A DNA stretch of 54,655 bases from the sequence record MH706966; one strand, 5' to 3'. A program made the translations under genes and the position numbers. The stretch's first letter is position 1. Each line of letters opens with the position of its first letter. The stretch comes from Enterobacteria phage mEp021. Positions 10,615 to 52,894 of this stretch are shown piece after piece. The notes under the pieces are model-generated. The model was not told the DNA's origin, searched no databases, and saw only the letters and a list, made by a program, of their open reading frames with translations.

Positions 10615-10860
10615 CTAAAACATTAACTGATAAACACAGAAGAAGCCTGGAAGCTGGCTAATCAGGCCGCTTCTTTTCAGTTGATGCAGTGCAGAGATAG
10701 TGTCACGTAACGAAATTTCGCACATTTCCGCGATCTCTTCCGGAGTTACTTCGCTTTTGCCGTTGCATCCGGCCTTTGTTGCCAGTGCAATTAAGATAAG
10801 TTTTTGCACATGATCATTGTTATTCAGGCGAATATCAAAAGCCTTGCGAACGTAATACAT
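10615..10860 (-). CDS. Small winged-helix DNA-binding protein, first gene of the leftward operon (Cro-like by position)
   Basis: 81 aa; KLILIALATKAGCNGKSEVTPEEIAEMCEISLRDTISALHQLKRSGLI resembles the N-terminal domain of the O-like protein; divergent from cI; SD aggaga. Confidence 0.45.
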   Translation of the reverse strand: MYYVRKAFDIRLNNNDHVQKLILIALATKAGCNGKSEVTPEEIAEMCEISLRDTISALHQLKRSGLISQLPGFFCVYQLMF

Positions 10861-17320: not shown

Positions 17321-17557
17321 ATGATTAATGGTTTTTTAAGCTGGTTAAGAGTGTGGTTTTTTGCCACGCTTTTCGTTTTTTTGGCGTTCAGCGGTGTCAT
17401 TGTCATATTTACGCTGGCGATGATGTTCATTACATGGTCAGTACCTGAATTTAACAATCTTGGAAGTATTTTTGCTGTCGCCCGCGCCATGTTTGCTTGT
17501 AGCGCATTTGTTGGTTTTTGTTGGAGTGTTTCGCCTGATTGGGATGATGAATGGTGA
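17321..17557 (+). CDS. Small membrane protein (78 aa, two predicted TM helices)
   Basis: Hydrophobic segments FFATLFVFLAFSGVIVIFTLAMMFI and FACSAFVGFCW. Confidence 0.45.
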   Translation: MINGFLSWLRVWFFATLFVFLAFSGVIVIFTLAMMFITWSVPEFNNLGSIFAVARAMFACSAFVGFCWSVSPDWDDEW

Positions 17558-17561
17558 TCCT

Positions 17562-17795
17562 ATGGCCTTGTTCAATATGTCAGAACTGCAATTCAACGCC
17601 GTAAAAGCTGCCGCCCGCGCTGCACTTTCTGCTTGCAAAGCGGAGGTAGAGAAAAACGGCTACAGCGATAAAGCCACGCGGCTGATATTAGAAAAGCATT
17701 ATCGCAAGGTCGCCCCACTAATCAGCATTGAGCGCTTTGTGTGGTTGGTGGGGTATTTAAACAACCGTTGGGGGACGGAACAAGATTATTTCTAA
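17562..17795 (+). CDS. Hypothetical protein (77 aa)
   Basis: Internal ATG start chosen to avoid overlap with the upstream membrane-protein ORF. Confidence 0.4.
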   Translation: MALFNMSELQFNAVKAAARAALSACKAEVEKNGYSDKATRLILEKHYRKVAPLISIERFVWLVGYLNNRWGTEQDYF

Positions 17796-37482: not shown

Positions 37483-37569
37483 TTATTTTTTGTTTTTAAG
37501 TGCCTTCAGCATTTCTTCGATAAAGTCGGCATAGTGCTCATGCTCGTTGGGTCGGTAGTAGTTTTTCAT
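37483..37569 (-). CDS. Small hydrophilic protein (28 aa), first gene of a two-gene moron operon
   Basis: MKNYYRPNEHEHYADFIEEMLKALKNKK; SD aagagga 7 nt upstream. Confidence 0.35.
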   Translation of the reverse strand: MKNYYRPNEHEHYADFIEEMLKALKNKK

Positions 37570-37725
37570 TTTCTTATCCTCTTTGCTTCCTCCGGTTAAT
37601 CCGACCTTCTAAATCCCTTTACTCTATCCCTTTCCTTTAGCCTCTTTATACAAAATGTATTCGTTGAAGTGAAGCCATTTTGTATAAAATAGAGATCAGT
37701 ATCACACTTTTTACGAGGTTAAATC

Positions 37726-40071
37726 ATGTCCACCAGTTTAGGTACAATTTATTACGAAGTTGATGCAAAAACTGGTCAACTTCTAGTCGCTCAGAGACAG
37801 GCGGATCAGGCTTTTGACAGTATCGAGCGTGGCGCAAAACGCGCTGACCGCCAGGTTAACACGCTTAAAACTTCAATCAAAGCACTATCCAGGGTTATAC
37901 ATCTGCTACTTGCTGCGGAGGCTGTGCGCCAGTTTATTGACATGGCGGAGCAAGCAAAAATGCTTCGTGTCAAAATTAAAATGCTCACAGGTGACGCAGA
38001 GGCCGCAGGACGTGTTTTTGACGGCCTGAAAAAAATATCAAAGGAAACCGGGCAAAGCCTTAAAGACACTGGCGAATTGTGGCAAGGCCTGGCTATTTCA
38101 CTAAAGAATACTTCCGCTACGGAAGGCCAATTGCTCAACCTGGTTGGCACTATTCAGAAGATGGGGGCGTTAGGAGGCGCGTCAGCGGAACAGATGTCTA
38201 ATTCTATGCGCCAGTTCCGCCAGTCTATAGACGGCGGCGTGCTGCGTGCTGAAGAGTTTAACAGCCTGTTAGAGAACACGCCGACCATCGTACAGACAAT
38301 GGCCCGCCATATGGGGTTGTCAATGGGCCAGTTCCGCGCCGAAATGCTGGACGGCAAGATCACGGCTGAAAGGATGGTTAACGCGATTCAGGCAGCTACA
38401 CAGGAAACAAACGAGAAGTTTGCACAGTTGCCGCGCACGTCCGGCAAGGCTATCAATGAGCTTAAAGTTGAGGTGATGGGGCTTGTCGAACAACTTGACG
38501 ATCTTTTCGGCATATCAGATGGCGTTGTATCAGCTATCGACTTAATAACTGGCGGCGTTGAGGGATTAGGTAAAGGCGCTAAATTCGCCGCAACCTGTTT
38601 TAATACACTCAAAACGGCTGGCAGTGAGTTCATAGACATGTTTGACGACGTGGCTGTTAAGGCTGGCGAGGTGGCGGAAGAAATCATTAGAATGGTAACG
38701 CCAATCAAGGCGCTAATGGATGGCTACAAATGGATGAAGGAGATTGTAGGAAAGCAAACAGAAGAATATAACACCAATTATGAGAAGAAATACGGTAAAA
38801 GACTTGGTAAGGGAATGCAATTTTGGGATGATTGGCAGGCCGTACTTAACCAAACAAAAGAAAACAAGGGAACCGACACCGCTGACGACGGCAAGATCAC
38901 CGGATTCGAGCCACCAGTAGATAAGCCAGGAAAACCGAAAAAAGGAAAAAAAGACAAGAAATCTGAAGCTGATCGGCTTGGTGATGAAGGTATAAAAGTG
39001 TCCGACCAGTACAACAAGGACGCCGCCGCTATGCGCAAAGCATTAGAGAACGGCAAGGCCATTGATGCTGCATTCGCCCAGGGCAAAATCACCCTCCTTG
39101 AGTACAAGGCCGCGCAAAAGGGGATAGGCAAGGAACTGAAGGACGAATTGGCACAAATCCCGGTGGAAGAATTGCAAGATAAATGGGCGCACATAGTAAG
39201 CCCAATGGATCAGCTTAAGGGCGAAATTGACCCAATCAAACAGGCGCAGAATGAGTGGGCTGTCAGAAAACAAATGCTATTAGACCTGGGAGCTACAGAA
39301 GCGCAACAGAGACAGGCGCAGTTAGAATATGAGCAACAGATCAGGGATCTGAAGTGGGAGCAATGGCAGGCGCAAAGCGACACAAACAGCCTGATTGGTG
39401 CTTGTGTTAGCGGCCTCAAGGGTGGCATGGGTAATGCGCTTACTGGCCTGTTAAACGGTACTCAATCATTAAGCGAGGTTTTTGCCAACCTGGGAAGCAG
39501 CATACTTAACACCGTAGGCAATAAACTTTCGGAAATAGCCGCTAACTGGATAGCAGATCAATTGATGATGGAAACGCAAAGCAAGGCTACACAGGCAAGT
39601 ACAGCGGCTGGCGCTGTGGCAGCGCAGGGCGAGATTGCTGCGGCAGCGGCCCCGGCAGCGGCTGCGACGGCGGCATCAACTGGCGGTAGCTGGGCGGCGG
39701 CTGGTGCTGCGGCGCTTTCTGCTATCATGTCGCTGGCAACGTCAATTTTTGGCGGCGGTCGTTATAATGGTGGTTCTGTGAATGGTGGCAGTCTGTATCG
39801 CGTAGGGGAACACGGAATACCGGAGCTATTCCAGACGAGCAACGGGCGTCAGTATATGATTCCTGGGGAAAATGGCAGGGTTATTCCTGGCCGCGATCTT
39901 TTCAGTGGTGGCAGCATCAGTATGCCTGTTAACATTACCGTTCAGACCACAAACGGGTTTAGCGAAGAGGACAGTCGCAGATTGCAAGACGCCATGAAAC
40001 GCGTTGCAATGGGAGTAATTAAAGAGCAAAGTTCAAGGCCCGGAGGTCTTATCCAACCACGAAGAAAATAA
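37726..40071 (+). CDS. Tail tape measure protein
   Basis: 781 aa; helical N-terminal two-thirds, glycine/alanine-rich segment, position in the tail module; SD gaggt. Confidence 0.85.
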   Translation: MSTSLGTIYYEVDAKTGQLLVAQRQADQAFDSIERGAKRADRQVNTLKTSIKALSRVIHLLLAAEAVRQFIDMAEQAKMLRVKIKMLTGDAEAAGRVFDGLKKISKETGQSLKDTGELWQGLAISLKNTSATEGQLLNLVGTIQKMGALGGASAEQMSNSMRQFRQSIDGGVLRAEEFNSLLENTPTIVQTMARHMGLSMGQFRAEMLDGKITAERMVNAIQAATQETNEKFAQLPRTSGKAINELKVEVMGLVEQLDDLFGISDGVVSAIDLITGGVEGLGKGAKFAATCFNTLKTAGSEFIDMFDDVAVKAGEVAEEIIRMVTPIKALMDGYKWMKEIVGKQTEEYNTNYEKKYGKRLGKGMQFWDDWQAVLNQTKENKGTDTADDGKITGFEPPVDKPGKPKKGKKDKKSEADRLGDEGIKVSDQYNKDAAAMRKALENGKAIDAAFAQGKITLLEYKAAQKGIGKELKDELAQIPVEELQDKWAHIVSPMDQLKGEIDPIKQAQNEWAVRKQMLLDLGATEAQQRQAQLEYEQQIRDLKWEQWQAQSDTNSLIGACVSGLKGGMGNALTGLLNGTQSLSEVFANLGSSILNTVGNKLSEIAANWIADQLMMETQSKATQASTAAGAVAAQGEIAAAAAPAAAATAASTGGSWAAAGAAALSAIMSLATSIFGGGRYNGGSVNGGSLYRVGEHGIPELFQTSNGRQYMIPGENGRVIPGRDLFSGGSISMPVNITVQTTNGFSEEDSRRLQDAMKRVAMGVIKEQSSRPGGLIQPRRK

Positions 40072-40126: not shown

Positions 40127-41461
40127 TTACGCGGCTTTTATAATTTCTTTATACTTATCTTCCACCATGTTAAAAACCTCTGGTCTGTAGTAGAAAAATT
40201 CGCAACTACCATCAAATTTTACTGGGAAGTTAATTTTGTAATTATTAAGGGTTTTGTGTATCGCGCCTTCTAGTTCATAGATATTTTGTGTCGGACCTTC
40301 TAATGTTTTTACGATATGCAAATCAGGAATCGTTACACCCGCTTTATGTGCGCTACTTAGTATTCTATTTCTTCGTTCGTTTTCCTTAACACTTACCCCT
40401 ACTTTCATTAGCGTTGGTACTTCCAGATCGTCAACCATGATATAAAGTTTGCCGCGTTCGTAGGATAAAAAACCCTTTTTAGCACATTTAGAACAGCCGC
40501 TACCTTCCTTAAGTTTTTGCGGCGTGGTTCGCCACTTATAACCACACACTTTACATAAACACGATACTTTGTTTTTATTCCCTGTTATTTTACCTACCAC
40601 TTTGATATTAGGGTTGATGTTGGCAATGGCTTTTACTTGCTCATCATGTGATATTCTTCGTGCTTGCGATCCTTTTCGTTTCGCACACTTCGGGCAACCA
40701 GTACCTTTTTTAAGGCTGGCTGGAGTAGTTAACCACTCATGACTGCAAGACTTACAGCGGCATAACGTTCTCGTAGTATTGTTAATAATTTTTTCTAATA
40801 CCTCAACGCTAGGACTGGTTTTCGCAATAACTGCAATTTGTTCTTCATGTGATAGTTTGGTGTGTCCGCTACATTTCGGGCAGCCAGTACCATGCTTGAT
40901 GTTGTTGGGAGTTGCTGGCCATTCATGATTGCAAATCTTACATTTGCATAATACTTTTTTTAAACTCGCAGATTAAAAGGGGTTTTATTCAATATTGCTG
41001 TTAACCTTCGCAATAGCTGCAACTTGTTCTTCATGCGTTAATCTTCTATCTGCGCATTTTGGGCAACCTTGCCCGATTTTAAGTGTTTCAGGTCTAGCCA
41101 ACCATTCATGATCACAAACTTTGCAATGGCATAATACCTTTGTTTTATTATTAATAATTACCCCTAACACCTTAATATCAGGATTAACTTTAGCAATAAT
41201 TGCAACCTGTTCTTCGTGTGGTAATGCCCGTTTTTGTGCTCTTTTTAACGCCGCACATTTAGGGCAACCAACACCGCGCTTAAGATCAGCAGGTCTACCA
41301 AACCATTCGTGATTACAAGTTTTGCAGCAGCATGATACTTTTTCCATATTCCCGGTAATTACCCCTATCACCTCGATATTGGGGTTAACTTTTGCAATAG
41401 CGGCAACTTGTTCTTCGTGTGTTAATTTTTTTGTCATAATACCGCTCCTACAATCTTCCAT
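40127..41461 (-). pseudogene. Disrupted paralog of the Zn-ribbon/GIY-YIG-like gene at 7737-9224
   Basis: A single reading frame of about 445 codons carries about five Zn-ribbon modules and an intact C-terminal GIY-YIG-like domain but is interrupted by two in-frame TAA stops (+ strand 40985-40987 and 40973-40975). Confidence 0.55.
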
Positions 41462-41547: not shown

Positions 41548-41802
41548 TCACTTATGAGCGCCTTTTACGCCACATAACTTGTTATAAAAATGGTGCTCAA
41601 CGATTAACCAAACCCTCAGATCTTCACTGAACAGCCGCCAATCAGGATTAATGTCAAACTTCCAGCCATAACCATCGCGTAACTTTTTGGGGTTGGCCTC
41701 TTTCTTCAGGAAAGCATTTAATAAGGCTTTTCCCTTTTTGATGATCCGGTCCTGTGCGTTTTTCTGTGCTTTCAGGTTTTTACCAATCGCCACCAATTTC
41801 AT
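41548..41802 (-). CDS. Small protein (84 aa), possibly RelE/YafQ-like toxin fold
   Basis: Lysine-rich N-terminal helices then GYGWKFDINPDWRLFSEDLRVWLIVEHHFYNKL, loosely resembling the YafQ PDW-L-Y pattern from memory; SD gcggggtgg. Confidence 0.3.
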   Translation of the reverse strand: MKLVAIGKNLKAQKNAQDRIIKKGKALLNAFLKKEANPKKLRDGYGWKFDINPDWRLFSEDLRVWLIVEHHFYNKLCGVKGAHK

Positions 41803-41820
41803 AATCCACCCCGCAATCAA

Positions 41821-41976
41821 TTAGTTGACCACTTTCAGGAAGAAATCACAGTATTCATCTTCTTTTGCATTCATCATGAACTGACCGTATTTGAATGCGT
41901 CATCAAAGCCTTTTACAATCGCCACTTCCACCTGTTCGAATGCGTTGTTCAGCATTACCACTACATAGCGTTTCAT
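41821..41976 (-). CDS. Small protein (51 aa), upstream partner of the 84-aa gene
   Basis: MKRYVVVMLNNAFEQVEVAIVKGFDDAFKYGQFMMNAKEDEYCDFFLKVVN; strong SD aaaggagggg 4 nt upstream of the ATG. Confidence 0.4.
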   Translation of the reverse strand: MKRYVVVMLNNAFEQVEVAIVKGFDDAFKYGQFMMNAKEDEYCDFFLKVVN

Positions 41977-42146: not shown

Positions 42147-42500
42147 ATGCCTGAAGTTTTCAGATGGACGCCGCAAAGAAGCTACAGCGTGACCAGGGAA
42201 CCAAATGTGTCGGTCGTTAAACTTGGTGATGGTTATGAACAGCGCCAGGCTAAAGGGATTAACACGTTGCTTGATAGCTACACCCTGGTTTTTAAAGGCA
42301 GTAGCGCAGGATGCGGTGATAGTGGGAACGTGGCGATCCAGGCAGAAGCATTCTTGAGGGCGCGCGGCGCTGTCGAGGCTTTTTACTGGTCGCCGTCTAT
42401 GGATGGTGTGCAAAGGCTTTTTGTTTGCCGTAGCTGGAGTATGACAAAGGACGGGCCTGTATACACGCTAAACGCAACATTTGAGCAAGTTGTCAGTTAG
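42147..42500 (+). CDS. M: Minor tail protein M
   Basis: 117 aa; size and position as lambda gpM, immediately before gpL-like; SD taggggga. Confidence 0.65.
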   Translation: MPEVFRWTPQRSYSVTREPNVSVVKLGDGYEQRQAKGINTLLDSYTLVFKGSSAGCGDSGNVAIQAEAFLRARGAVEAFYWSPSMDGVQRLFVCRSWSMTKDGPVYTLNATFEQVVS

Positions 42501-42697
42501 TGGGGGTTAATATGTACGGGACTTGTGTAGTGGACAAAACTGACGCTTTTACATTGTTTGACGACTACGAGATCAACGACCTTACTGTAAAGGCTGACAA
42601 TGGCGATACATGGTATCTTCATGATGTTGGTGATGGTTATGTGGGATGCAGATCCAGAGAAGGCAAGGAGGTTTTATTTTTGGTTGATGGCGTATAA
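42500..42697 (+). CDS. Hypothetical protein (65 aa)
   Basis: ORF overlapping the gpM stop. Confidence 0.35.
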   Translation: MGVNMYGTCVVDKTDAFTLFDDYEINDLTVKADNGDTWYLHDVGDGYVGCRSREGKEVLFLVDGV

Positions 42698-42876
42698 TAA
42701 CAACCCCGCTTCGCGCGGGGTTTTCTTGTCAGTAGTTAATGTACATCAAACTCATTGGGTGAGCGTGCGCCATATTATTGGCTATCGCCGCCCAGTCCCA
42801 ATCGGCAGCATGAACGCCAAATACTATCAGTCCCATTATTATTAGCGCCAAAACTTCTATTTTCATAATCTGTCAC

Positions 42877-43191
42877 CTATAAGTTATCACGCAGGTAATT
42901 AACGCCCTTATCAGTGACGAATGAATGGTTTACCTGGTTTTCATCCGTCATGATGATGAATAACTTTTCCTGTAGGTATTTCGCTTTCGGGTACAGTGTT
43001 AAACAGACCTGGTACAGTATCCCGCGCTCAATCAGCAAATCAATAAATTCGTGCTCATGATAACCGATAAGGCGGGCGGCCTGTTTCAACGTGTACACAT
43101 AGTCACCGTGATTACGCCGTGCCATGATTTTATTCTCACATATCAAAAAATAGCATGTCAGGTATAAAAGTATCGCCGCAAGAATTTCCAT
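42877..43191 (-). CDS. Hypothetical protein, possible HTH DNA-binding protein (start ambiguous)
   Basis: YTLKQAARLIGYHEHEFIDLLIERGIL HTH-like segment; alternative start at 43125. Confidence 0.4.
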   Translation of the reverse strand: MEILAAILLYLTCYFLICENKIMARRNHGDYVYTLKQAARLIGYHEHEFIDLLIERGILYQVCLTLYPKAKYLQEKLFIIMTDENQVNHSFVTDKGVNYLRDNL

Positions 43192-43369
43192 ATCCTTTTA
43201 CCGTACTACCATCAATATCAATCACTGTGAGCGGCACAAAATTTAAACAGTCATCGACAGTGAAACGGCTGCCAGAAGGTGTAATGAATAATGGGTATCT
43301 ATTTTTTATATTAAAATCATCATTTTTGTTAGATGTAACAACGAGTTTGATAACACCTATCATCTTCAT
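43136..43369 (-). CDS. Hypothetical protein (77 aa)
   Basis: ORF in the opposite-strand island. Confidence 0.35.
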   Translation of the reverse strand: MKMIGVIKLVVTSNKNDDFNIKNRYPLFITPSGSRFTVDDCLNFVPLTVIDIDGSTVKGYGNSCGDTFIPDMLFFDM

Positions 43370-43384
43370 ATATCGGCCTACACT

Positions 43385-43738
43385 TTATTTGCCATTAAAA
43401 CAGCCCAGGTTATCTATGCAGAAGTCTTTTGCCGCTTTTTCGTATTCGCGTTTTGCTTCCGGATCGTCAGCTGGAAAACCTTTTGCGTGTATTTCTCCAG
43501 GGCAAGATTGATCCATAGAATCAGCAAATTCAACATTGACGTTAAAGTTAATATCTTTCGGGTTCATCTCTTCCACCTTATCCGGTACTTGGACCGGAGT
43601 AATATCAAAATCACGATAGTTAAACCCACAGCGAAGTAATTCACGACCTTCATCACGCGCCGCAGCATATGTGTCAAATAGGCCCATGCGTTCCCATCCG
43701 CATTTATTAGTAAACACGTCTAAACTGTATTTTTGCAT
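43385..43738 (-). CDS. Hypothetical protein (117 aa)
   Basis: ORF in the opposite-strand island. Confidence 0.45.
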   Translation of the reverse strand: MQKYSLDVFTNKCGWERMGLFDTYAAARDEGRELLRCGFNYRDFDITPVQVPDKVEEMNPKDINFNVNVEFADSMDQSCPGEIHAKGFPADDPEAKREYEKAAKDFCIDNLGCFNGK

Positions 43739-43750
43739 TTTGTTAACCTC

Positions 43751-43981
43751 TCATTTGACGGGTTCGATCTCGTACCCCAAAACGCGTTCGTCTTCAGCAA
43801 GTAAAAGCGCGTCAACCAGCGCATCGCCTTCATCTTTATACAGGGCCACAAGCATTTCCCTGCCATCAGCCAGGAACACCGTCAACCTCCACACCTTATC
43901 ATCCATCGCACACCTCCGCGCCATTTTGTTAACCCTGCTTCCTTTTGAGTACAATATACATATTGTAAAAAGCGCTATCAA
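43751..43981 (-). CDS. Hypothetical protein (57-76 aa)
   Basis: First gene of the opposite-strand island; acidic. Confidence 0.35.
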   Translation of the reverse strand: MIALFTICILYSKGSRVNKMARRCAMDDKVWRLTVFLADGREMLVALYKDEGDALVDALLLAEDERVLGYEIEPVK

Positions 43982-44033
43982 CCGTTTTGGTATGATTTAG
44001 CGTGACGTAGATCACAAATTGCAAGGTGATAAA

Positions 44034-44738
44034 ATGCGCAGCATACCTACAGAAATGATTATTGATTCCGTGGATGCCGGAGTCGGCGCGGTAATTGACT
44101 TGTTTGAATTAGACCTCACGCCCCTGGGTGGCGAGGTTATCCGCTTCCATTCCGGCGCGAATGGCTATTACGGCCCGGTTATCTGGAAGGGGGTGGCCTA
44201 CAACAGCTACCCAATCGAGGCGACTGGCTTCGAAATGAAAAACGAAGGCGTTTACTCACGCCCACAAATGGTAGTAGCCAACATCGGCGGGCTAATCACC
44301 GGGATGAATAACGATTTTAACGACCTGCGAGGAATGAAGGTTACGCGCCGCCAGGTGGAGGTAAAATACCTGGACGCCGTTAATTTCCCCAACGGCAACC
44401 CGGATGCAGATCCATCTATTGAGGCTGTGTCTTTTTACGTCGTTGAAGCGATGAGTGAAGAAACAGCCGACCAGGTGCAATATGAACTGTCAACGCCAAT
44501 TGATGCTGATAAGGCGGTTATCCCTGGGCGCACAATTCTCGCTGACGTTTGCCAGTGGCAATATCGCGGCGACGGTTGCGGATACAGTGGCGGCCCTGTA
44601 GCTACAGATAAAGACGAATCGACCAGCGATCCAAAACTGGATAGATGCAGCCACCGCCTGAGCGGTTGCCGTTTGCGTTTTCCGCGCCCCAACCCGTTAC
44701 CAATTTCCTGTTTCCCGGGATCAAGCAAGGTGGGTTGA
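44034..44738 (+). CDS. L: Minor tail protein L
   Basis: Closely parallels lambda gpL as recalled, including the C-terminal Cys cluster CQWQYRGDGCGYSG...CSHRLSGC; SD aaggtg. Confidence 0.85.
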   Translation: MRSIPTEMIIDSVDAGVGAVIDLFELDLTPLGGEVIRFHSGANGYYGPVIWKGVAYNSYPIEATGFEMKNEGVYSRPQMVVANIGGLITGMNNDFNDLRGMKVTRRQVEVKYLDAVNFPNGNPDADPSIEAVSFYVVEAMSEETADQVQYELSTPIDADKAVIPGRTILADVCQWQYRGDGCGYSGGPVATDKDESTSDPKLDRCSHRLSGCRLRFPRPNPLPISCFPGSSKVG

Positions 44739-45957: not shown

Positions 45958-46524
45958 GTGAACTGGTCTGAATTGTTTGTTTATGATGAAGATTCTCCTT
46001 CATGTTTAAGGTGGAAAGTCACCGCTAACAGCAGAACGGCGAGGACTGGCGATGCGGCAGGAAAAATAGTAGCGGCAAAAAGCGGCAATAAGTACTGGAA
46101 AATCACATGGAAGGGCCGTCGCTATTATGCTCACCGGATTGTTTACGAATTATGCAGTGGCAGAAAATTAAAACGCAGTGAGATCATCGATCACATTGAT
46201 GGTAATGGGCTTAATAATAAATTCAATAACATACGCGTAACAGATAAAAAAGGTAACGCCAGAAATATGACCATAGGTCGCGCGACAAGGGAGAGCGGAT
46301 TGCCATTTGGGATATGTTGGCACGCAGAAGGGAGATCTATTAGAGCACGTATCACCGCTGATAACGACAAAAGAGTTAGTAAATCATTTAGCGTTATAGC
46401 GTGCGGTGGACTTGAAATGGCTATTAATGCCGCCGTCGCGTGGCGGTCATTCATGATTGAAGAGCTAAATAAAGCTGGCGCAGGATACACGAAATTACAC
46501 GAAACAGGGGGTTTATATGTCTAG
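45958..46524 (+). CDS. HNH homing endonuclease with AP2-like domain, inserted between I and J
   Basis: 188 aa; SEIIDHIDGNGLNNKFNNIRVTDKKGNARN HNH motif; GTG start with SD aggggg; paralog of 6080-6586. Confidence 0.7.
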   Translation: MNWSELFVYDEDSPSCLRWKVTANSRTARTGDAAGKIVAAKSGNKYWKITWKGRRYYAHRIVYELCSGRKLKRSEIIDHIDGNGLNNKFNNIRVTDKKGNARNMTIGRATRESGLPFGICWHAEGRSIRARITADNDKRVSKSFSVIACGGLEMAINAAVAWRSFMIEELNKAGAGYTKLHETGGLYV

Positions 46525-49500
46525 TGGCGGCGGTAAAGCAAAAACGCCAACTTTGCTTAATGATAATTTGTTTCATAAACAATTTTATCGGGTTTTAGAT
46601 ATTCTAAGTGAAGGACCAATTTTTGGAGTAGTTAACCAAACAGCGCCATTAAACAGCGTAATGCTTAATGACACGCCTATCACTGACGCAAGCGGAAACA
46701 CATCAGTCCCTGGCGTTAGCTTAGCGTGGCGTAATGGTACGGCTGACCAGTCACCAATCAACGGCTTCAACGCTATTGAGTCAACCGTTATTGTCAACGC
46801 AAAAGTAACTCACGACACACCAATAATCAGGACCATTTCAGATCCCAACGTTAACCGCGTAAGGCTGAATCTTGGCGTTGACTCTTTGGTAAGGTCAGAT
46901 GACAAGGGCAATCAATACAATACATCCGTTATGTTGATGGTTGATGTCAAACCTTCATCGTCATCAACGTGGTCACTGGTTAAAGATATTACTATTGGCC
47001 CAGGCAAACAAAGCGGTGAGTATCTAGAAGCCCACATTATCAACGCGCCGGATGAAAAACCGTTTGATATTCGCGTTCGTCGCGTAACGCCAGACAGCAC
47101 GGGAGATCTTCTTCACAATGATACCAGGTGGAGCAGTTACAGCGAGATAATCGATGATAATTTGTCTTATCCCCATACCGCTGTTGCTGGCGCGGTAATT
47201 GACCACGATCAGTATACTGATACGCCTACCCGCACCTATCATCTGCGTGGGCTGATTGTTGATGTTCCTGATAACTACGACCCGGAAACGCGCACGTATT
47301 CAGGATTATGGCTTGGTGGCTTTAAAAAGGCGTATACCAATAACCCTGCATGGCTTTTCCGGTATCTGGTTAAAAATGAACGTTTCGGGCTTGCCCGTCA
47401 TGCTGGTTACATTGATGTTGACGACGGCGCATTATATACGCTTTCTCAATACTGCGACCAGTTGGTTAGCGACGGATACGGCGGCTTTGAACCTCGCATG
47501 ACGCTTAATGCTTACATCACGGAGCAAATGAGCGCACGCGACTTACTTGATAACATTGCAGGCATGTTCCGTGGTATCGCGTTATGGGACGGGCAACGCC
47601 TTACCGTGATGATTGATGCACCACAAGATCCGATCGCCACCATTACAAATGCAAACGTCGTTGATGGCGCGTTTACTCGTTCAAGTATTGCCCGCGCAGA
47701 ATCTTACAACGCCGTGATTGTGTCATGGACTGACCCAGAAAACGGCTGGGAGCAATCAAAAGAATACGTGGCAGATGATGAATTGATCGCCCGCGACGGT
47801 TATAACGAAACAACGCTAGAGGCGTTCGGTTGCACGTCACGCGGGCAAGCGTACCGCGCTGGCAAATGGCTGATAGAAACGGCAAAACGCGAGCCATCAA
47901 AATTCACGTTTAAAATGGCCCGTGACGCAATTCACTTCACCCCCGGGGATATTATCGAGATACTCGACAATAACCGCGCTGGCGCTCGTTTAGGCGGCCG
48001 CATCGTGGCGAACAGTGGGAAGGTGATAACGGTAGACAAGGTTGATTCTGAATATATCGCGGCTGGTGACACTATCAGTTTACTTGATAGTGATGGCAAG
48101 TTTAAAAAACACCAGATCACCGGAGTTAACGGAAACAACATCACCCTTGCAACCGCCCCCGCATGGATTCGTAACGGGACCGTATTCGCTGTGTCAACTG
48201 AAGCGGCAAAACCTGTTCTGTGTCGAATTATCAGCGTAGCAGAAACAGAAAATAACAGCGTGTACACCATCGAGGCAGCACAACATGACCCACACAAACA
48301 GGCTGTAGTTGATGAAGGCGCAATCTTCGAGGTAAACAACGACACGCTTAATCACTTCCGCGTGCCGAACATTGAAAATCTGAAGGTGTTAAACGTTGGT
48401 TCTGAAACTGTTCAATGTCGCGCTACATGGGAAACACAGACGACAACGCATCGCCTGACCTTTGAAATACGCGTATATAACGCCGAAGGCCGCGTGGTGG
48501 CAGCTTATGAAACAACGAATTACCGCTATGATTTTTATGGCCTCGATGCTGGCAGCTACACACTTGGTATTCGCGGTCGTAATGACACTGGCATGAAGGG
48601 GGCGGAAAGTATTGTTGACCTGGTTATTGGCGCGCCAGCGGCCCCAATTGGAGTTAATTGGGTTCCCGGCGTTTTCCAGGCAACAGTATACCCGATCAGC
48701 AAAACAACACTGACAACTGATACAGCATACGAGTTCTATTTCTCAGGTGAAAATCAGATCACTGACCCATCAAAAGTAACAACTTTGGCGCAGTTTACCG
48801 GGCGCGGCTATCAGTGGACTTTTGGCGGAATGAACACGGGCCATACCTATTACGTTTATGTCCGCACACGTAACGCTTTTGGTGTGTCAGATTTCGTTGA
48901 GTCATCAGGAAAACCAACTGAAAACTTCGATGAAATTAGCGACTACGTCACCAAAGACGTGATTAACTCAGAACAGTTTAAAGGGATGATTAGCGACATT
49001 AAAGATCTTGGCGACCGCGCCGACCTTATCGAAAGCGCTACAAATGACCTTAAAACTGCTACCGACAACCTCAAAACTGCAACTGATAACCTGACAAACA
49101 TCACTGACGATTTAATGGTTGACACTGACAACCTGACAAACATCACTGACGAATTGAGGACTGATACGGACGGCTTAATCACAGAAACAGGGGCCATAAA
49201 AGCTGATACGGACACACTGAAAAAACAAACGGAAGATCTTTATAAAAAGGTTGGGGAAAACGCCGATGATATTGGACAGCATGAGGCAAGAATAGATTCA
49301 CTGGAGGTATCTAGCGAAAAAGTTGGCAGTGAACTTGCGCAAGCAAAAGCAAGCCTGCAAAACGCGTCATTGGCGCTTATCAATAACTCACTTGCACAGA
49401 CTAACACTCGCGTAACTCTTACCGCTCAGTATAAGAAAGGCAGGACAGAGACGAAGGCTGAAATTGACCGTATTGACAACGTTATTGCTGAAGAGAAAAA

Positions 49501-51700
49501 GGCAACGGCTGAATCACTGGAAACCATCACGGCAGAAATGAACACGATGGATTCTAACCTTAAAGGTCAGATCTCAAGCGTGGAACGCGCAGTGGCTGAC
49601 GAGGCCAGCGCACGCGCAGAAGCCATTAACGGTGTGAACGCATCAATAAGCAATCTAGACAAGAAAACAGACGCCAGCATCAATAGACTTGATCAAGCTA
49701 TTGCAGACGAAACGAACGCCCGCACACAGGCAGTCAGTGACGTTAACGCGAGTATCTCATCGCTAGACAAGAAAACTGACGCCAGCGTTAAACGCTTGGA
49801 TCAAGCAATTGCAGACGAAACCAGTGCAAGAACTGAAGCTATCAGCGGCGTGAACGCATCAATTTCCACTCTTGATAGCAAGGTAACAAGCAATGTAACG
49901 CGCATAGATAAAGCTATTGCAGACGAAACGAAGGCACGCACTGACGCAATCAGCGGCGTTAATGCAAGTATTAGCACACTCGAAGGCAACACCAATTCAG
50001 AAGTGAAACGCCTTGATCAAGCAATAGCTGACGAGACTAGTGCCCGCACACAGGCTATCAGCGGTGTAAATGCTTCGATAAGCAATCTTGAAAGCAAAAC
50101 TGACGCGAGCGTTTCCCGTCTTGATAAAGCAATATCAGATGAAACGCAGGCAAGAAGTGCCGCAATAACAGAGGTTAAAGCTGATTTGTCAACGCTCGAA
50201 AATAGCACAAACGCCAGCGTTAAACGCCTTGATCAGGCGATTGCCGACGAATCAAGCGCACGCGCTGAAGCAATATCGGGCATCAACGCAGAGATTGGCA
50301 ACATTGAAAATAATGTTGACAAAAACAGCGATGATATAAATCAGACAAAAGCAAGCCTGCAAAACGCGTCTATCGCGCTTATTAACAACTCAATCGCTCA
50401 AACAAACACGCGTGTTACGCTTACGGCCCAATACAAGAAAGGCCGCAAAGAAACCAACGCGCAAATTGACCGTATTGACAATGTTATCGCTGAAGAGAAA
50501 AAGGCTACAGCGGAAGCGGTTAGCGTGGTAAAAGCATCGATCACGGATCTTGATAAGAAGACTGACGCGAGTGTTTCCCGTCTCGACAAGGCTATCGCAG
50601 ACGAAACAAGCGCACGCAGCGAGGCTATTAGCGGAGTAAATGCCTCAGTGTCAGCGCTAGACAAGAAAACGGATTCAAACATAAGCCGTCTTGATAAAGC
50701 CATTGCAGATGAGACAAGCGCAAGAACTGAAGCTATCAGTGGAGTGAATGCAAGTATTATCACTCTTGAAAGCAACACTGAATCTGAAGTTGGCAGGCTG
50801 GATCAGGCAATTGCCGACGAATCAAGTGCCCGCGCCCAGGCTATAAGCGGAGTGAACGCATCAATTTCCACTCTTGATAGTAAGGTGACAAGTAACGTAA
50901 CCCGTATTGATAAGGCTATTGCAGACGAAACGAAGGCACGCACTGACGCGATAAGTAGCCTTAATTCATCGCTTACCAGTACGATTAATTCGAAAGTGTC
51001 TGAAGTATCAACGGCACTTTCTACGCATGAAGCATCAAGCGCTGAAAAATTTAGCCAGATCTCTGCGTCTTTCGAATCTGTAAACTCAAGTATTACAGAA
51101 TGGTCACAATCTATGGCAACGGCTGACGAGGCATTGTCAACCAAAATTGATCAGTTAACAGTAACCGTTAACGGTAACAAAACGGCGATCGAGACGACAT
51201 CGAATGCGCTAACCGATTTCAAGGGTAACGTTGATGCGTCATATTCAATCAAGCTCGCCACCGATAACAACGGCATGAAGTACGCGACAGGTATGTCGCT
51301 TGGCCTGACTGGTAACGGCACAAACTTTCAATCGCAGTGTATTTTCCTCGTTGACCGCTTCGTGTTAATGACCTCAGCAAACGGCACATATACAACACCT
51401 TTCTATGTCACCAATGGTGCGATGTATGTGAAAGAAGCGTTTATTAAAGACGGATCGATCGATACTGCAAAAATAGCGCAGCAAATCCAGTCAACTGTAT
51501 TTGTTCAAGACTCAAAAGGTTGGATGATTAACAAAGATGGATGGGCGCAATTCAACGAAGTTACTGTAAGGGGTAACGTCATTGTTAAAGGCAATCAAAA
51601 TTTCGATGTACGCAATAGTGACGGACGGGTAATTATTAACAATAATGGCATTACAGTAAATCTTCCTAGTGGTGGTAAAATTATTATCGGTGTTTGGTAA
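46517..51700 (+). CDS. J: Central tail fibre / host specificity protein J, expanded by internal repeats
   Basis: 1727 aa; N-terminal about 800 aa parallels lambda J as recalled; about 13 copies of a 33-aa repeat in the centre; lambda-J-like distal region retained. Confidence 0.9.
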   Translation: MSSGGGKAKTPTLLNDNLFHKQFYRVLDILSEGPIFGVVNQTAPLNSVMLNDTPITDASGNTSVPGVSLAWRNGTADQSPINGFNAIESTVIVNAKVTHDTPIIRTISDPNVNRVRLNLGVDSLVRSDDKGNQYNTSVMLMVDVKPSSSSTWSLVKDITIGPGKQSGEYLEAHIINAPDEKPFDIRVRRVTPDSTGDLLHNDTRWSSYSEIIDDNLSYPHTAVAGAVIDHDQYTDTPTRTYHLRGLIVDVPDNYDPETRTYSGLWLGGFKKAYTNNPAWLFRYLVKNERFGLARHAGYIDVDDGALYTLSQYCDQLVSDGYGGFEPRMTLNAYITEQMSARDLLDNIAGMFRGIALWDGQRLTVMIDAPQDPIATITNANVVDGAFTRSSIARAESYNAVIVSWTDPENGWEQSKEYVADDELIARDGYNETTLEAFGCTSRGQAYRAGKWLIETAKREPSKFTFKMARDAIHFTPGDIIEILDNNRAGARLGGRIVANSGKVITVDKVDSEYIAAGDTISLLDSDGKFKKHQITGVNGNNITLATAPAWIRNGTVFAVSTEAAKPVLCRIISVAETENNSVYTIEAAQHDPHKQAVVDEGAIFEVNNDTLNHFRVPNIENLKVLNVGSETVQCRATWETQTTTHRLTFEIRVYNAEGRVVAAYETTNYRYDFYGLDAGSYTLGIRGRNDTGMKGAESIVDLVIGAPAAPIGVNWVPGVFQATVYPISKTTLTTDTAYEFYFSGENQITDPSKVTTLAQFTGRGYQWTFGGMNTGHTYYVYVRTRNAFGVSDFVESSGKPTENFDEISDYVTKDVINSEQFKGMISDIKDLGDRADLIESATNDLKTATDNLKTATDNLTNITDDLMVDTDNLTNITDELRTDTDGLITETGAIKADTDTLKKQTEDLYKKVGENADDIGQHEARIDSLEVSSEKVGSELAQAKASLQNASLALINNSLAQTNTRVTLTAQYKKGRTETKAEIDRIDNVIAEEKKATAESLETITAEMNTMDSNLKGQISSVERAVADEASARAEAINGVNASISNLDKKTDASINRLDQAIADETNARTQAVSDVNASISSLDKKTDASVKRLDQAIADETSARTEAISGVNASISTLDSKVTSNVTRIDKAIADETKARTDAISGVNASISTLEGNTNSEVKRLDQAIADETSARTQAISGVNASISNLESKTDASVSRLDKAISDETQARSAAITEVKADLSTLENSTNASVKRLDQAIADESSARAEAISGINAEIGNIENNVDKNSDDINQTKASLQNASIALINNSIAQTNTRVTLTAQYKKGRKETNAQIDRIDNVIAEEKKATAEAVSVVKASITDLDKKTDASVSRLDKAIADETSARSEAISGVNASVSALDKKTDSNISRLDKAIADETSARTEAISGVNASIITLESNTESEVGRLDQAIADESSARAQAISGVNASISTLDSKVTSNVTRIDKAIADETKARTDAISSLNSSLTSTINSKVSEVSTALSTHEASSAEKFSQISASFESVNSSITEWSQSMATADEALSTKIDQLTVTVNGNKTAIETTSNALTDFKGNVDASYSIKLATDNNGMKYATGMSLGLTGNGTNFQSQCIFLVDRFVLMTSANGTYTTPFYVTNGAMYVKEAFIKDGSIDTAKIAQQIQSTVFVQDSKGWMINKDGWAQFNEVTVRGNVIVKGNQNFDVRNSDGRVIINNNGITVNLPSGGKIIIGVW
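49560..50960 (+). repeat. Coding tandem repeats within J (about 99-bp units) plus a roughly 1-kb segmental duplication
   Basis: Repeat unit ...DASVxRLDxAIADETSARTEAISGVNASISxLDxKT...; the linker gcaagcctgcaaaacgcgtc... occurs at about 49345 and again at about 50350. Confidence 0.8.
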
Positions 51701-51740: not shown

Positions 51741-52685
51741 TTAATAAATTACTGGCAAATAAGGAAGATTCATACCTATACAGAAATCCGGCCTGTTACC
51801 TATTTCATACCTGACAATCCTTGATCCTGTTCCGCTTTTCACCTGCCCGTTGTACATCATAATGCCTTTGTATCTTAGTTCCTTGTATGCTGATATAGCT
51901 CTAGTATTAAAGCCGCATCTCAATATTGGGAAGAACGCGTCACCTATTGTCTGGTAACTATTCGATAACGCTATAAATCCCTTAACAACCAATGGCCTTT
52001 GTTTTGTTGAAAACACGCATTGATTATTTTTATTAATGATGGTTATTCCGTCGCCAGGTGATGGCGGTGATTTGCTAAAAATAGCCAAATTCATCGTTAC
52101 CGATCCATATGTGTCACCAGTTGCAGAAGTGTTTGTGTTTGTACAGATCAATTTATTGTTTCCGTCAAACTCAACTGAAACACCGCTATTGCTCCAGTTA
52201 CCGAAAGGAACACCGGCAACTGGCATAGTGTAAGAACCATTAAAGCTAACACTCCCAACCCATAAACATGACATCAATGTATCGTTAGTCGTTATCGATG
52301 CAAAATCTGTGCTATCTGCAACTAATATACCCTCACCAGTAGACGCCTTTGCTATCTCAAACACGCTACCGCTAAAATTAGTGATCCTATCAGAATATGC
52401 GTTCTCACCACTAATTGAAATCCTTGCCGTGCCACCAGAAGCACTAAAGCCTGATATAAAATATGTTTCAACACCCCTGTCAAGCTCAAACGCGTAAGCG
52501 CCTACCTTTGGGATTAGAAACTTATCGCCGCCAGTTAAATCCTTTATGGAAAAACTTTGCGAAAACCCAGCATTTTGAATATTGAAATCTCCAGCGTGTG
52601 AGAACGCACGCAACCCGCTTGTTATTTCCATTGCAGGGCGTCCGTCATTCAGCCCAATATATATACCCGCCCCCATTAGTACCAC
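51741..52685 (-). CDS. Hypothetical Gly/Ser/Thr/Asn-rich protein (314 aa), opposite strand after J
   Basis: Long ORF; beta-rich composition; no motif recognised. Confidence 0.5.
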   Translation of the reverse strand: MVLMGAGIYIGLNDGRPAMEITSGLRAFSHAGDFNIQNAGFSQSFSIKDLTGGDKFLIPKVGAYAFELDRGVETYFISGFSASGGTARISISGENAYSDRITNFSGSVFEIAKASTGEGILVADSTDFASITTNDTLMSCLWVGSVSFNGSYTMPVAGVPFGNWSNSGVSVEFDGNNKLICTNTNTSATGDTYGSVTMNLAIFSKSPPSPGDGITIINKNNQCVFSTKQRPLVVKGFIALSNSYQTIGDAFFPILRCGFNTRAISAYKELRYKGIMMYNGQVKSGTGSRIVRYEIGNRPDFCIGMNLPYLPVIY

Positions 52686-52894
52686 TCCTTACTTCCGCAA
52701 TCTCTAGTCTTGCCACTATGACCATCAGTGCCATCATAAACGCGACAGATCTCACCGGACGGAACCTTAGCCCCGTCAACCCATCTTTCATAGCAGACAC
52801 CGTATGCGCTAGTTGCACAATGGCCGTTGTGTCGATTAGTGTCAGCGCAACCAACCAGAATAGCCGCAACAGCGATAATTGTTACCATTTTCAT
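52676..52894 (-). CDS. Small Cys-rich lipoprotein (72 aa), moron
   Basis: MKMVTIIAVAAILVGCADTN... signal peptide with lipobox LVGC; six Cys; SD ggggtg. Confidence 0.55.
   Translation of the reverse strand: MKMVTIIAVAAILVGCADTNRHNGHCATSAYGVCYERWVDGAKVPSGEICRVYDGTDGHSGKTRDCGSKEWY

Follow-up and report, generated by a model that had tools for sequence, protein, structure and literature searches.

A lineage-conserved predicted operon with a stand-alone KilAC-domain protein between the tail genes M and L of coliphage mEp021

Introduction

Several described systems resemble a locus that we analyzed in Enterobacteria phage mEp021 (sequence record MH706966), namely a block of small minus-strand genes that lies between the genes of the minor tail proteins gpM and gpL and is predicted to form an operon (in the following, the island). 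The window, that is, the whole stretch of DNA under study, comprises 54,655 nt, and all coordinates are window positions. The island shares with the morons of lambdoid late operons (Juhala/Hendrix; lambda lom and bor; HK97) the presence of non-structural genes in the tail cluster, a predicted promoter and terminator of its own and a deviating base composition, and its gene p77, like other genes found in the same slot, shows the presence/absence polymorphism of morons. It differs from them in that its core trio of genes (p51, p117 and a gene for a KilAC-domain protein) is fixed in the lineage, and in being a predicted five-gene operon on the opposite strand with conserved regulatory sites instead of a single added gene.

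Operons of anti-CRISPR (acr) and anti-CRISPR-associated (aca) genes are known to combine a strong promoter, small variable Acr genes, a conserved helix-turn-helix (HTH) Aca repressor gene at the 3' end and an inverted-repeat operator. The island is alike in gene order, in a conserved HTH-type product as opposed to variable acidic upstream genes, in its cargo slots and in a promoter palindrome. However, we did not class it as acr-aca because its products match no known Acr, Aca or anti-defence family in Pfam, PHROG, NCBIfam or PDB and its putative effector genes are universal in the lineage instead of patchy. A KilAC protein as an Aca family is not described in the literature searched. The E. 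coli anti-CRISPR module AcrIE9/AcrIE10 was considered as a counterpart and set aside, as it is plasmid-borne and stands in an unrelated context.

The immI operon of P22 (mnt-arc-ant) and the Arc-Ant operon of the ES18-like Salmonella phage Oslo likewise are regulatory operons situated within late or tail gene clusters, with small proteins encoded upstream of an Ant-family domain; the island, in contrast, has neither an N-terminal Ant domain nor a ribbon-helix-helix repressor, and is oriented opposite to the late genes. The ES18-like M-L junction (ES18 gp24/gp25; Oslo AMBK_22/23) corresponds in its tail module and in having a small forward gene with a minus-strand gene behind it, but its cargo is one unrelated, coiled-coil-like protein of 95 amino acids (aa), and it has no KilAC, p51 or p117. 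Finally, CreP of Acinetobacter baylyi ADP1, a 103-aa bacteriostatic protein that causes filamentation, consists of a single KilAC domain (bioRxiv 10.1101/2024.01.05.574328). Going by its description, the island protein is alike in having a single KilAC domain of about 80-100 aa and the TxKG motif, which is reported as common to CreP homologues and P1 KilA. CreP, however, is encoded on the chromosome and kept repressed by a CRISPR effector together with an RNA (bioRxiv 10.1101/2024.01.05.574328), whereas the KilAC gene of the island closes the conserved part of a phage operon of protein genes.

Escherichia phage mEp515 matches the region at 97% identity, and mEp013, mEp554, mEp044, mEp010 and MagusPhagus do so at 88-95%; related DNA is present in 35 of 5426 complete E. 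coli genomes. By its sequence, the window belongs to the published mEpimmI coliphages, a Nus-dependent, non-lambdoid siphovirus group described in 2025. Among the temperate coliphages of human faeces, the group reportedly equals the lambdoid phages in frequency (PMC11893012); a function is assigned to only about half of its genes. In the same paper, a "KilAC-like antirepressor" is listed among the core genes of the manual pangenome without further study; the supplements hold no text on the island genes, all of which are labelled "hypothetical protein" in the records of the relatives. The genes themselves are therefore already deposited, and tail clusters are well known to carry autonomous accessory units of this kind. 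New are the corrected gene models, the conservation of the trio as opposed to the variability of the slot, the paralogy of p51 and p117 with its hypervariable domain, a C-module/s45 cassette that is mobile, a KilAC model whose fold is MerR/Xis-like, and a conserved CRP-like site and palindrome. Few non-structural operons are fixed across the mEpimmI group as a whole, and the M-L interval emerges as one of them. Overall, this accessory operon is ordinary in kind and well described here, and it reveals no new principle.

A minus-strand gene block between gpM and gpL is fixed in the mEpimmI lineage

Pfam profiles identify gpM and gpL as the boundaries of the interval, which spans 1533 bp within the gene order H-M-L-K-I-J, with the tape measure gene upstream and K, I and J downstream. 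In the lambda-type CP-1639, M (37566-37889) and L (37892-38536) abut, and most tblastn matches to M or L overlap an annotated neighbour gene, that is, they show the abutting arrangement of lambda-type phages. Gene models were derived from a six-frame listing of open reading frames (ORFs), family scans (Pfam, PHROG) and the starts kept in relatives, and gave the following features:

42147-42500, plus strand: gpM, minor tail protein M, the left boundary (PF05939, E 6e-29, 101 bits; phrog_14)
42512-42697, plus strand: 61-aa acidic protein outside the minus-strand operon (phrog_3249; mEp515_96; positional analogue of ES18 gp24 in Oslo)
42702-42722, both strands: predicted bidirectional rho-independent terminator (8-bp stem with 6 GC pairs, T-runs on either strand; T16 in mEp515)
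42729-42866, minus strand: s45, a 45-aa ORF, last operon gene (hydrophobic N-terminus; homologues follow the C-module, the conserved C-terminal part of p117, in the contigs L050 and L059)
42877-43125, minus strand: stand-alone KilAC/ANT-domain protein, 82 aa (PF03374)
43136-43369, minus strand: p77, an accessory 77-aa gene between p117 and KilAC (GC about 0.35)
43385-43738, minus strand: p117, a two-module acidic protein (phrog_38567)
43751-43906, minus strand: p51, a 51-aa acidic protein, first operon gene (phrog_29559; ATG at 43906 behind GGAGG)
44034-44738, plus strand: gpL, minor tail protein L, the right boundary (PF05100, E 6e-72, 241.8 bits; a 705-nt gene in relatives, which keep the ATG at 44034)

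The original prediction had proposed that about 1.3 kb with four opposite-strand genes of 76, 117, 77 and 104 aa is inserted between M and L, and that its products are not virion components. The split of M from L by a block of small non-structural genes is confirmed. The gap also contains a plus-strand gene (61 aa) and a terminator, and the minus-strand genes number five, as s45 had been overlooked. The sizes of 117 and 77 aa are right, whereas the starts of the other two had been over-extended. We placed the start of p51 at the ATG at 43906 since some relatives have the upstream ATG in another frame, which shortens the 76-aa product to 51 aa, and we count the KilAC protein as 82 instead of 104 aa because the extension overlaps p77 and is missing wherever p77 is missing. 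Scans of Pfam and PHROG returned no tail or head family match for any island product, so that, as far as homology can tell, the island is non-structural, in line with the expectation.

We compared 45 loci from viral contigs, obtained by a p117 profile search, and five annotated records; 49 mEpimmI-type loci were scored for gene presence. Most products have no annotated function and few homologues, as could be expected if the ORFs were chance or decaying frames in a non-coding spacer. This explanation is refuted, since all five are intact at up to 0.9 synonymous substitutions per site and the products match PHROG families and, above threshold, one Pfam domain. The ratio of nonsynonymous to synonymous substitutions (dN/dS; Nei-Gojobori method, among relatives, with a synonymous divergence of up to about 0.9) is 0.23 for p51, 0.21 for p117, 0.11 for KilAC, 0.18 for s45 and 0.37 for p77. 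Being intact in relatives at ratios of 0.11-0.37, the five minus-strand ORFs are real, selected genes, and all of them are under purifying selection.

The core of the island is found at this junction throughout the group: p117 and KilAC lie between gpM/p61 and gpL in 49/49 loci and p51 in 48/49, with an unrelated 52-aa ORF in its place in the locus L047. The gene s45 is found in 32 of the 49 loci. In contrast, p77 is present in the window and in 6/49 loci but absent from mEp515 and most relatives; it matches no family or PDB entry, and its homologues form just 4 clusters among 5.8 billion proteins. Elsewhere, the slots on either side of KilAC hold a 67-aa gene (ten loci), a 58-aa gene (two loci) or an HNH endonuclease gene (one locus). 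Searches of PDB, Pfam, NCBIfam and PADLOC with p51, p117, p77 and the 67-aa slot gene gave no usable match.

The comparison of the M-L junction among relatives, which the original prediction had suggested as a check, thus does not bear out the idea of inserted cargo: as the core is at the junction in all relatives and only p77 and a few small genes vary, the island is a lineage-conserved operon and not a recent insertion. Presence in one genome and absence from close relatives, as is characteristic of morons, applies to p77 and the other slot genes alone, while the base composition does set the island apart from its surroundings (GC 0.35-0.45 as compared to 0.50-0.54 in gpM and gpL). The M-L operon is a fixed feature of the mEpimmI lineage, in which the slot genes alone act as cargo. 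The slot itself is older than the lineage, because Oslo, whose gpM is 69% identical, also has small genes between M and L (M, the forward small gene, the unrelated minus-strand gene, L).

The promoter region contains conserved candidate regulatory sites

The island is preceded by 127 bp between the starts of p51 and gpL, which are almost invariant in 34 distinct sequences. A scan for sigma-70-like promoters (4.4 kb) and inspection of this region gave the following features:

43953-43981, minus strand: predicted sigma-70-like promoter reading leftwards (TTGATA-17-TATATT, 10/12 match, the best in 4.4 kb)
43950-43967, minus strand: 18-bp palindrome, a candidate operator (TACAATAT-GT-ATATTGTA), overlapping the -10 hexamer
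44002-44016, minus strand: CRP-like site (TGTGATCTACGTCAC), with half-site cores as in the lac CRP site

Among the 34 sequences, the promoter hexamers are invariant while part of the spacer varies, the palindrome is nearly invariant, and the TGTGA and TCAC arms of the CRP-like site are invariant around a variable N6 spacer. The predicted promoter and terminator of the island are both consensus matches and both conserved. Class I CRP promoters have a TGTGA-N6-TCACA-type site near -61.5 (or -71.5, -82.5, -92.5) upstream of a sigma-70 promoter. Counted from a start predicted 7 nt after the -10 hexamer (near 43946), the centre of the CRP-like site falls near -62.5, which would be within one base of this geometry.

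Both elements recur in the phage. The pattern TGTGA-N6-TCAC has 4 sites in the window compared to 0.27 expected (12165, 16520, 20097 and 44002, all on the minus strand), three of which share the longer form TGTGATC-N4-RTCACG. An ORF at 10615-10860 (minus strand, 81 aa) shows a weak match to a Crp-type HTH (E 7e-4). The left half of the palindrome lies within the motif ACAANATGKAT, with 7 window sites compared to 0.31 expected (11928, 16540, 20141, 37650, 42022, 43956 and 52945), always in intergenic or promoter-like positions: 11928 is at the early rightward promoter (PR) by the repressor gene, 42022 at the promoter of a sister island (see below), 43956 at the M-L island and 52945 upstream of an exclusion lipoprotein gene. 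The site at 37650 pairs with a copy about 25 bp downstream to give a 10-bp inverted repeat, and only the M-L island copy is a full palindrome. As binders of this motif, we considered a CI-like repressor with 434-type ACAA...TTGT operators as well as host factors. A LexA box at the palindrome was dismissed, since the CTGT-N8-ACAG cores are not matched. No RNA family of Rfam was detected anywhere in the window.

The KilAC protein is the best conserved island product and a candidate regulator

The 82-aa protein scores 29.2 bits against PF03374 (KilAC/ANT), above the Pfam cut-off of 25.3. None of the products had been recognized in the original prediction, although it had correctly noted an HTH-like segment in this last of its genes; the KilAC protein is of HTH type. 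Its structural model resembles the MerR/excisionase (Xis) winged-helix DNA binders, and it is a candidate regulator. Full-length antirepressors of the P22 Ant, KilA or Bro-KilAC type join an N-terminal domain to KilAC and comprise about 200-300 aa. The island protein, in contrast, is the KilAC domain alone, without AntA, KilA-N or Bro-N, and its nearest matches outside the mEpimmI group are the C-termini of larger Ant/Rha proteins. It is near neutral (isoelectric point 6.9), and the TxKG motif is present as TDKG.

Among the genes of the island, KilAC is the best conserved. Against the window protein, identity is 90-100% for KilAC compared to 84-100% for gpL, 84-100% for gpM (across 49 loci), 61-98% for whole p117 and 43-100% for p51. 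KilAC proteins differ by a mean pairwise distance of 0.056, whereas p51 proteins differ by 0.27 and the N-terminal domains of p117 by 0.42. The distances of KilAC correlate with those of p51, p117N and p117C at 0.23, 0.07 and 0.14, respectively, no higher than with gpM. Additionally, we observed that the synonymous divergence of the KilAC gene among relatives (0.32) is low compared to gpM (0.88) and p117 (0.92), which suggests a recent sweep, recombination or extra constraint at the nucleotide level.

p51 and p117 share a hypervariable domain, and the C-module forms a cassette with s45

Residues 1-50 of p117 (the X domain) are hypervariable and modelled as beta-beta-alpha-beta (AF2 confidence score pLDDT 88-96). 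The C-module (residues about 58-117; pLDDT about 50) is strongly conserved, with the motif SMDQxCPGEIHxxGFPADDPxAKREYEKAAKDF. The p117 family is tiny, with 14 matches in 1.84 billion representative proteins. Alignment of p51 with the p117 N-domain by hhalign (probability 91.7%, E 7.7e-7, 45 columns) identifies p51 as a paralogue of this domain, and a p117 relative (P0050) has the X domain twice ahead of the C-module. The alleles of p51 and of the p117 N-domain reassort freely (distance r = 0.32, no higher than with gpM). The net charge is about -7.5 for p51, about -8.4 for p117 and about -2.5 for p77.

In structure, the X domain is like phage proteins of 50-70 aa, some of them DUF7336 (TM score 0.7-0.8 over about 55 residues, Foldseek E 2e-3 or weaker); at the sequence level, Pfam gave no match to DUF7336 even at E up to 10. 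Two further similarities were discarded. A match of p117 residues 80-113 to RecA fusion chains (E 0.005) was judged a short helical coincidence. The likeness of the C-module to the OmpA-like motif GHAKGxPADDNEAKR, found by HMMER in two large repeat proteins, covers only about 27 residues and is probably due to chance; an OmpA-like domain has about 100 aa.

The protein s45 is hydrophobic in an N-terminal segment and carries a conserved motif, GVHA|A(D), and read by eye it appears to be a signal peptide or a small membrane peptide. Stand-alone C-modules of 56-60 aa also exist. In L050 (a 121-kb viral contig), L059 and L060, a homologue of s45 begins within about 10 nt of the C-module, and behind it lies a hairpin terminator homologous to that of the window (ACCCCGCTTCGGCGGGGTTT in L050). 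These cassettes in larger unrelated phage contigs are preceded by their own consensus sigma-70 promoter (TTGACA-17-TATGAT in L059); their neighbours in L059 and L060 include PhoH, a ClpP-like protease, a Dam methylase and T5orf172. Remoter C-module homologues lie in arrays of small unknown genes that face away from portal and Mu-F genes. Since it is free-standing in L050, L059 and L060, the C-module with s45 and terminator is an autonomous unit that moved between unrelated phages. The same free-standing cassettes, which in L050 and L059 have no KilAC gene near the C-module, indicate that this unit works without KilAC, p51 or the X domain. The operon is assembled from mobile pieces: two X-domain copies (p51 and the one fused in p117), the C-module/s45/terminator cassette and a stand-alone KilAC gene.

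Proposed function of the operon and alternatives

Our best guess, offered tentatively, is that the operon is driven by host RNA polymerase, is repressed by its own KilAC protein and makes products that act on the host. As predicted from the sequence, it is a leftward promoter-to-terminator unit of p51, p117, a variable cargo slot (p77 here), KilAC, s45 and the bidirectional terminator. Host RNA polymerase would fire the leftward promoter unaided, possibly with the help of cAMP-CRP near -62. The KilAC protein would then bind the 18-bp palindrome over the -10 hexamer and shut the operon off, like the Aca repressors of anti-CRISPR operons; we chose it as the putative repressor because it is the one highly conserved product with a DNA-binding-type fold and because a palindrome lies over the -10. 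The effectors would be p51 and p117, which are acidic and diverge fast, along with the cargo genes and an exported s45 peptide; their targets would be host components, in counter-defence, host takeover or exclusion. Late transcription has to pass the terminator at 42702-42722 on its way to L, K, I and J; it would run rightward and antisense through the island, and may thereby silence the operon late in infection.

The pattern of one regulator plus effectors speaks for this proposal: KilAC is near-invariant, as opposed to the variable small acidic p51 and p117, and accessory genes come and go around it. Also in its favour are the predicted promoter and bidirectional terminator, the promoter elements with fixed arms and free spacers, the AT-rich composition, the coding genes kept throughout the lineage, the modular build and the lack of tail or head family matches. 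A farther-reaching version seems doubtful to us, in which the operon is a carbon-status-gated (cAMP-CRP) and KilAC-repressed module for host manipulation or counter-defence with an effector system not described before, in which a hypervariable X "specificity" domain is fused to the conserved acidic C-module and accompanied by a secreted 25-residue s45 peptide, the cassette is shared with unrelated large phages, and KilAC-only proteins make up a new class of Aca-like repressors. With corrected genes, a domain dissection and candidates for the promoter, the operator and the CRP site at hand, the operon is open to direct testing. If it is true that the effectors are anti-defence or exclusion factors, they would form a new family, and if KilAC is indeed a repressor, this would be the first regulatory role for a very common, poorly understood phage domain.

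Several observations weigh against a KilAC-repressed host-directed operon. Pfam, PHROG, NCBIfam and PDB yielded no match of the island products to known anti-defence, exclusion, conversion, toxin or Acr/Aca families. The sole characterized stand-alone KilAC protein, CreP, is a growth-arresting toxin and not a regulator. Anti-defence loci usually vary between close relatives, whereas the trio is universal here. The assignment of the operator to KilAC is uncertain because the left half of the palindrome recurs at six other sites in the phage, and the operator may instead be that of a phage regulator with genome-wide reach, for instance the CI-like repressor. Likewise, the CRP-like sites could be bound by the phage's own 81-aa Crp-type HTH protein instead of host CRP.

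The lysogen-expressed conversion or exclusion function that had originally been envisaged is unlikely in our view, though parts of it are supported. In such a module, the promoter would be active in the prophage, perhaps gated by CRP, and s45 and p117 would block superinfecting phages or alter the envelope. It fits an island that is opposite in strand to the late operon with its own predicted sigma-70 promoter and terminator, the signal-peptide-like N-terminus of s45 with the conserved GVHA|A motif, and the fact that s45 is always together with the p117 C-module. Moreover, the ACAAnATGTATAT element is also found in the promoter region of Lpp, an experimentally shown exclusion lipoprotein gene, and a ParE-like toxin pair, which is typical prophage-maintenance cargo, is found in the sister island that separates the tape measure gene from M. 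However, s45 is absent from about a third of the relatives, while p117 and KilAC never are, the family searches linked no product to Sie, Cor, Llp, Rex or any further exclusion protein, and the palindrome over the -10 hexamer points to repression, not to constitutive expression. With the same cassette also located behind consensus promoters in much larger unrelated phage contigs, regulated or early expression appears to fit at least as well as constitutive expression in lysogens.

The likeness to CreP raises the alternative, to our minds quite unlikely, of a toxin or host-arrest module, in which KilAC would be a CreP/KilA-like division inhibitor neutralized by p51 and/or p117, in the service of addiction, abortive infection or a lytic Kil function. 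CreP shows that a single KilAC domain can be a toxin, and P1 KilA and phi11 gp07 are also reported as division inhibitors (bioRxiv 10.1101/2024.01.05.574328). The TDKG motif, the acidic upstream genes with an operator-like palindrome, the antitoxin-like build of p117 (a folded N-domain and a conserved, probably disordered C-terminal tail modelled at low confidence) and a neighbouring island that holds a genuine pair of small acidic and ParE-like proteins would all agree with it. Against it, the C-module of L050 and L059 is independent of a nearby KilAC gene, p51 and p117 N-domain alleles reassort against a near-invariant KilAC (correlations 0.07-0.23), which is unlike cognate pairs, KilAC is near neutral, and no toxin or antitoxin family scored above threshold (one UPF0175 match was sub-threshold). 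Improbable, too, is a second immunity (immI-like) antirepressor operon as in P22, where KilAC would inactivate the CI-like repressor, modulated by the small proteins, and tie induction to a non-SOS signal such as cAMP-CRP. KilAC is the C-terminal domain of many phage antirepressors, Ant/Rha C-termini being its nearest outside matches, a universal trio fits a life-cycle function, and most mEpimmI phages are reported not to be UV-inducible despite the S24 domain in their repressor (PMC11893012). Oslo, moreover, has its Arc-Ant operon inside the tail cluster. Yet the KilAC protein lacks an N-terminal AntA, Bro-N or KilA-N domain, p51 is predicted to be beta-beta-alpha-beta and not an Arc/Mnt ribbon-helix-helix protein and has no Pfam match, and the repressor is about 96% identical across the group whereas p51 and p117 are highly variable.

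In Oslo (L058, 89-1226), the tape measure region is closely preceded on the late strand by genes for an Arc-like repressor and a P22-type Ant, which constitute a precedent for regulatory operons inside such tail clusters.

Other genes in and around the tail cluster

A second minus-strand island lies between the tape measure gene and gpM (41548-41976, with a promoter region to about 42060). Its conserved part encodes an acidic protein of 51 aa (41821-41976) and, after it, a basic protein of 84 aa with a ParE-like toxin domain (41548-41802; PF24732, E 2e-12). These two genes look like a toxin-antitoxin pair and are present in nearly all 49 related loci; their promoter region shares the ACAAGATGTATAT element with the M-L island. 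The 51-aa protein was rejected as a homologue of p51 (hhalign probability 0.2%).

Two minus-strand ORFs of 157 and 158 aa (40127-40600 and 40985-41461) contain treble-clef zinc-finger repeats (DUF4379/CapR), one of them together with a T5orf172/MUG113 nuclease domain, and look like a split or duplicated homing endonuclease. Being found in 0/49 related loci, they are a truly window-specific insertion into the tail cluster. An HNH_3 homing-endonuclease gene (188 aa, 45958-46524, plus strand) separates tail gene I from J. The locus L024 has a related HNH gene within its M-L island, which indicates that endonucleases hop around the tail cluster.

The early region contains an 83-aa ORF (17544-17795, plus strand) whose in-frame ATGs give products of 83, 82, 77 and 72 aa, as published for Ipe. 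Ipe is an mEp021 protein whose overexpression reportedly induces haemolysis and cell death. A location of Ipe inside the M-L island was discarded, since the early-region ORF is the only one with these four starts.

The J-like tail tip protein (46517-51700, plus strand, 1727 aa) contains many tandem repeats of roughly 35 residues (...ISGVNASISxLDxKTDASVxRLDxAIADETxAR...), unlike lambda J. Downstream of J, a 72-aa lipoprotein with the lipobox LVGC is encoded on the minus strand (52676-52894), presumably one of the Lpp superinfection-exclusion lipoproteins tested previously (PMC11893012). The region upstream of its gene contains the elements TTGTGATCTATGT and ACAAAATGTATATT, like the island promoter.

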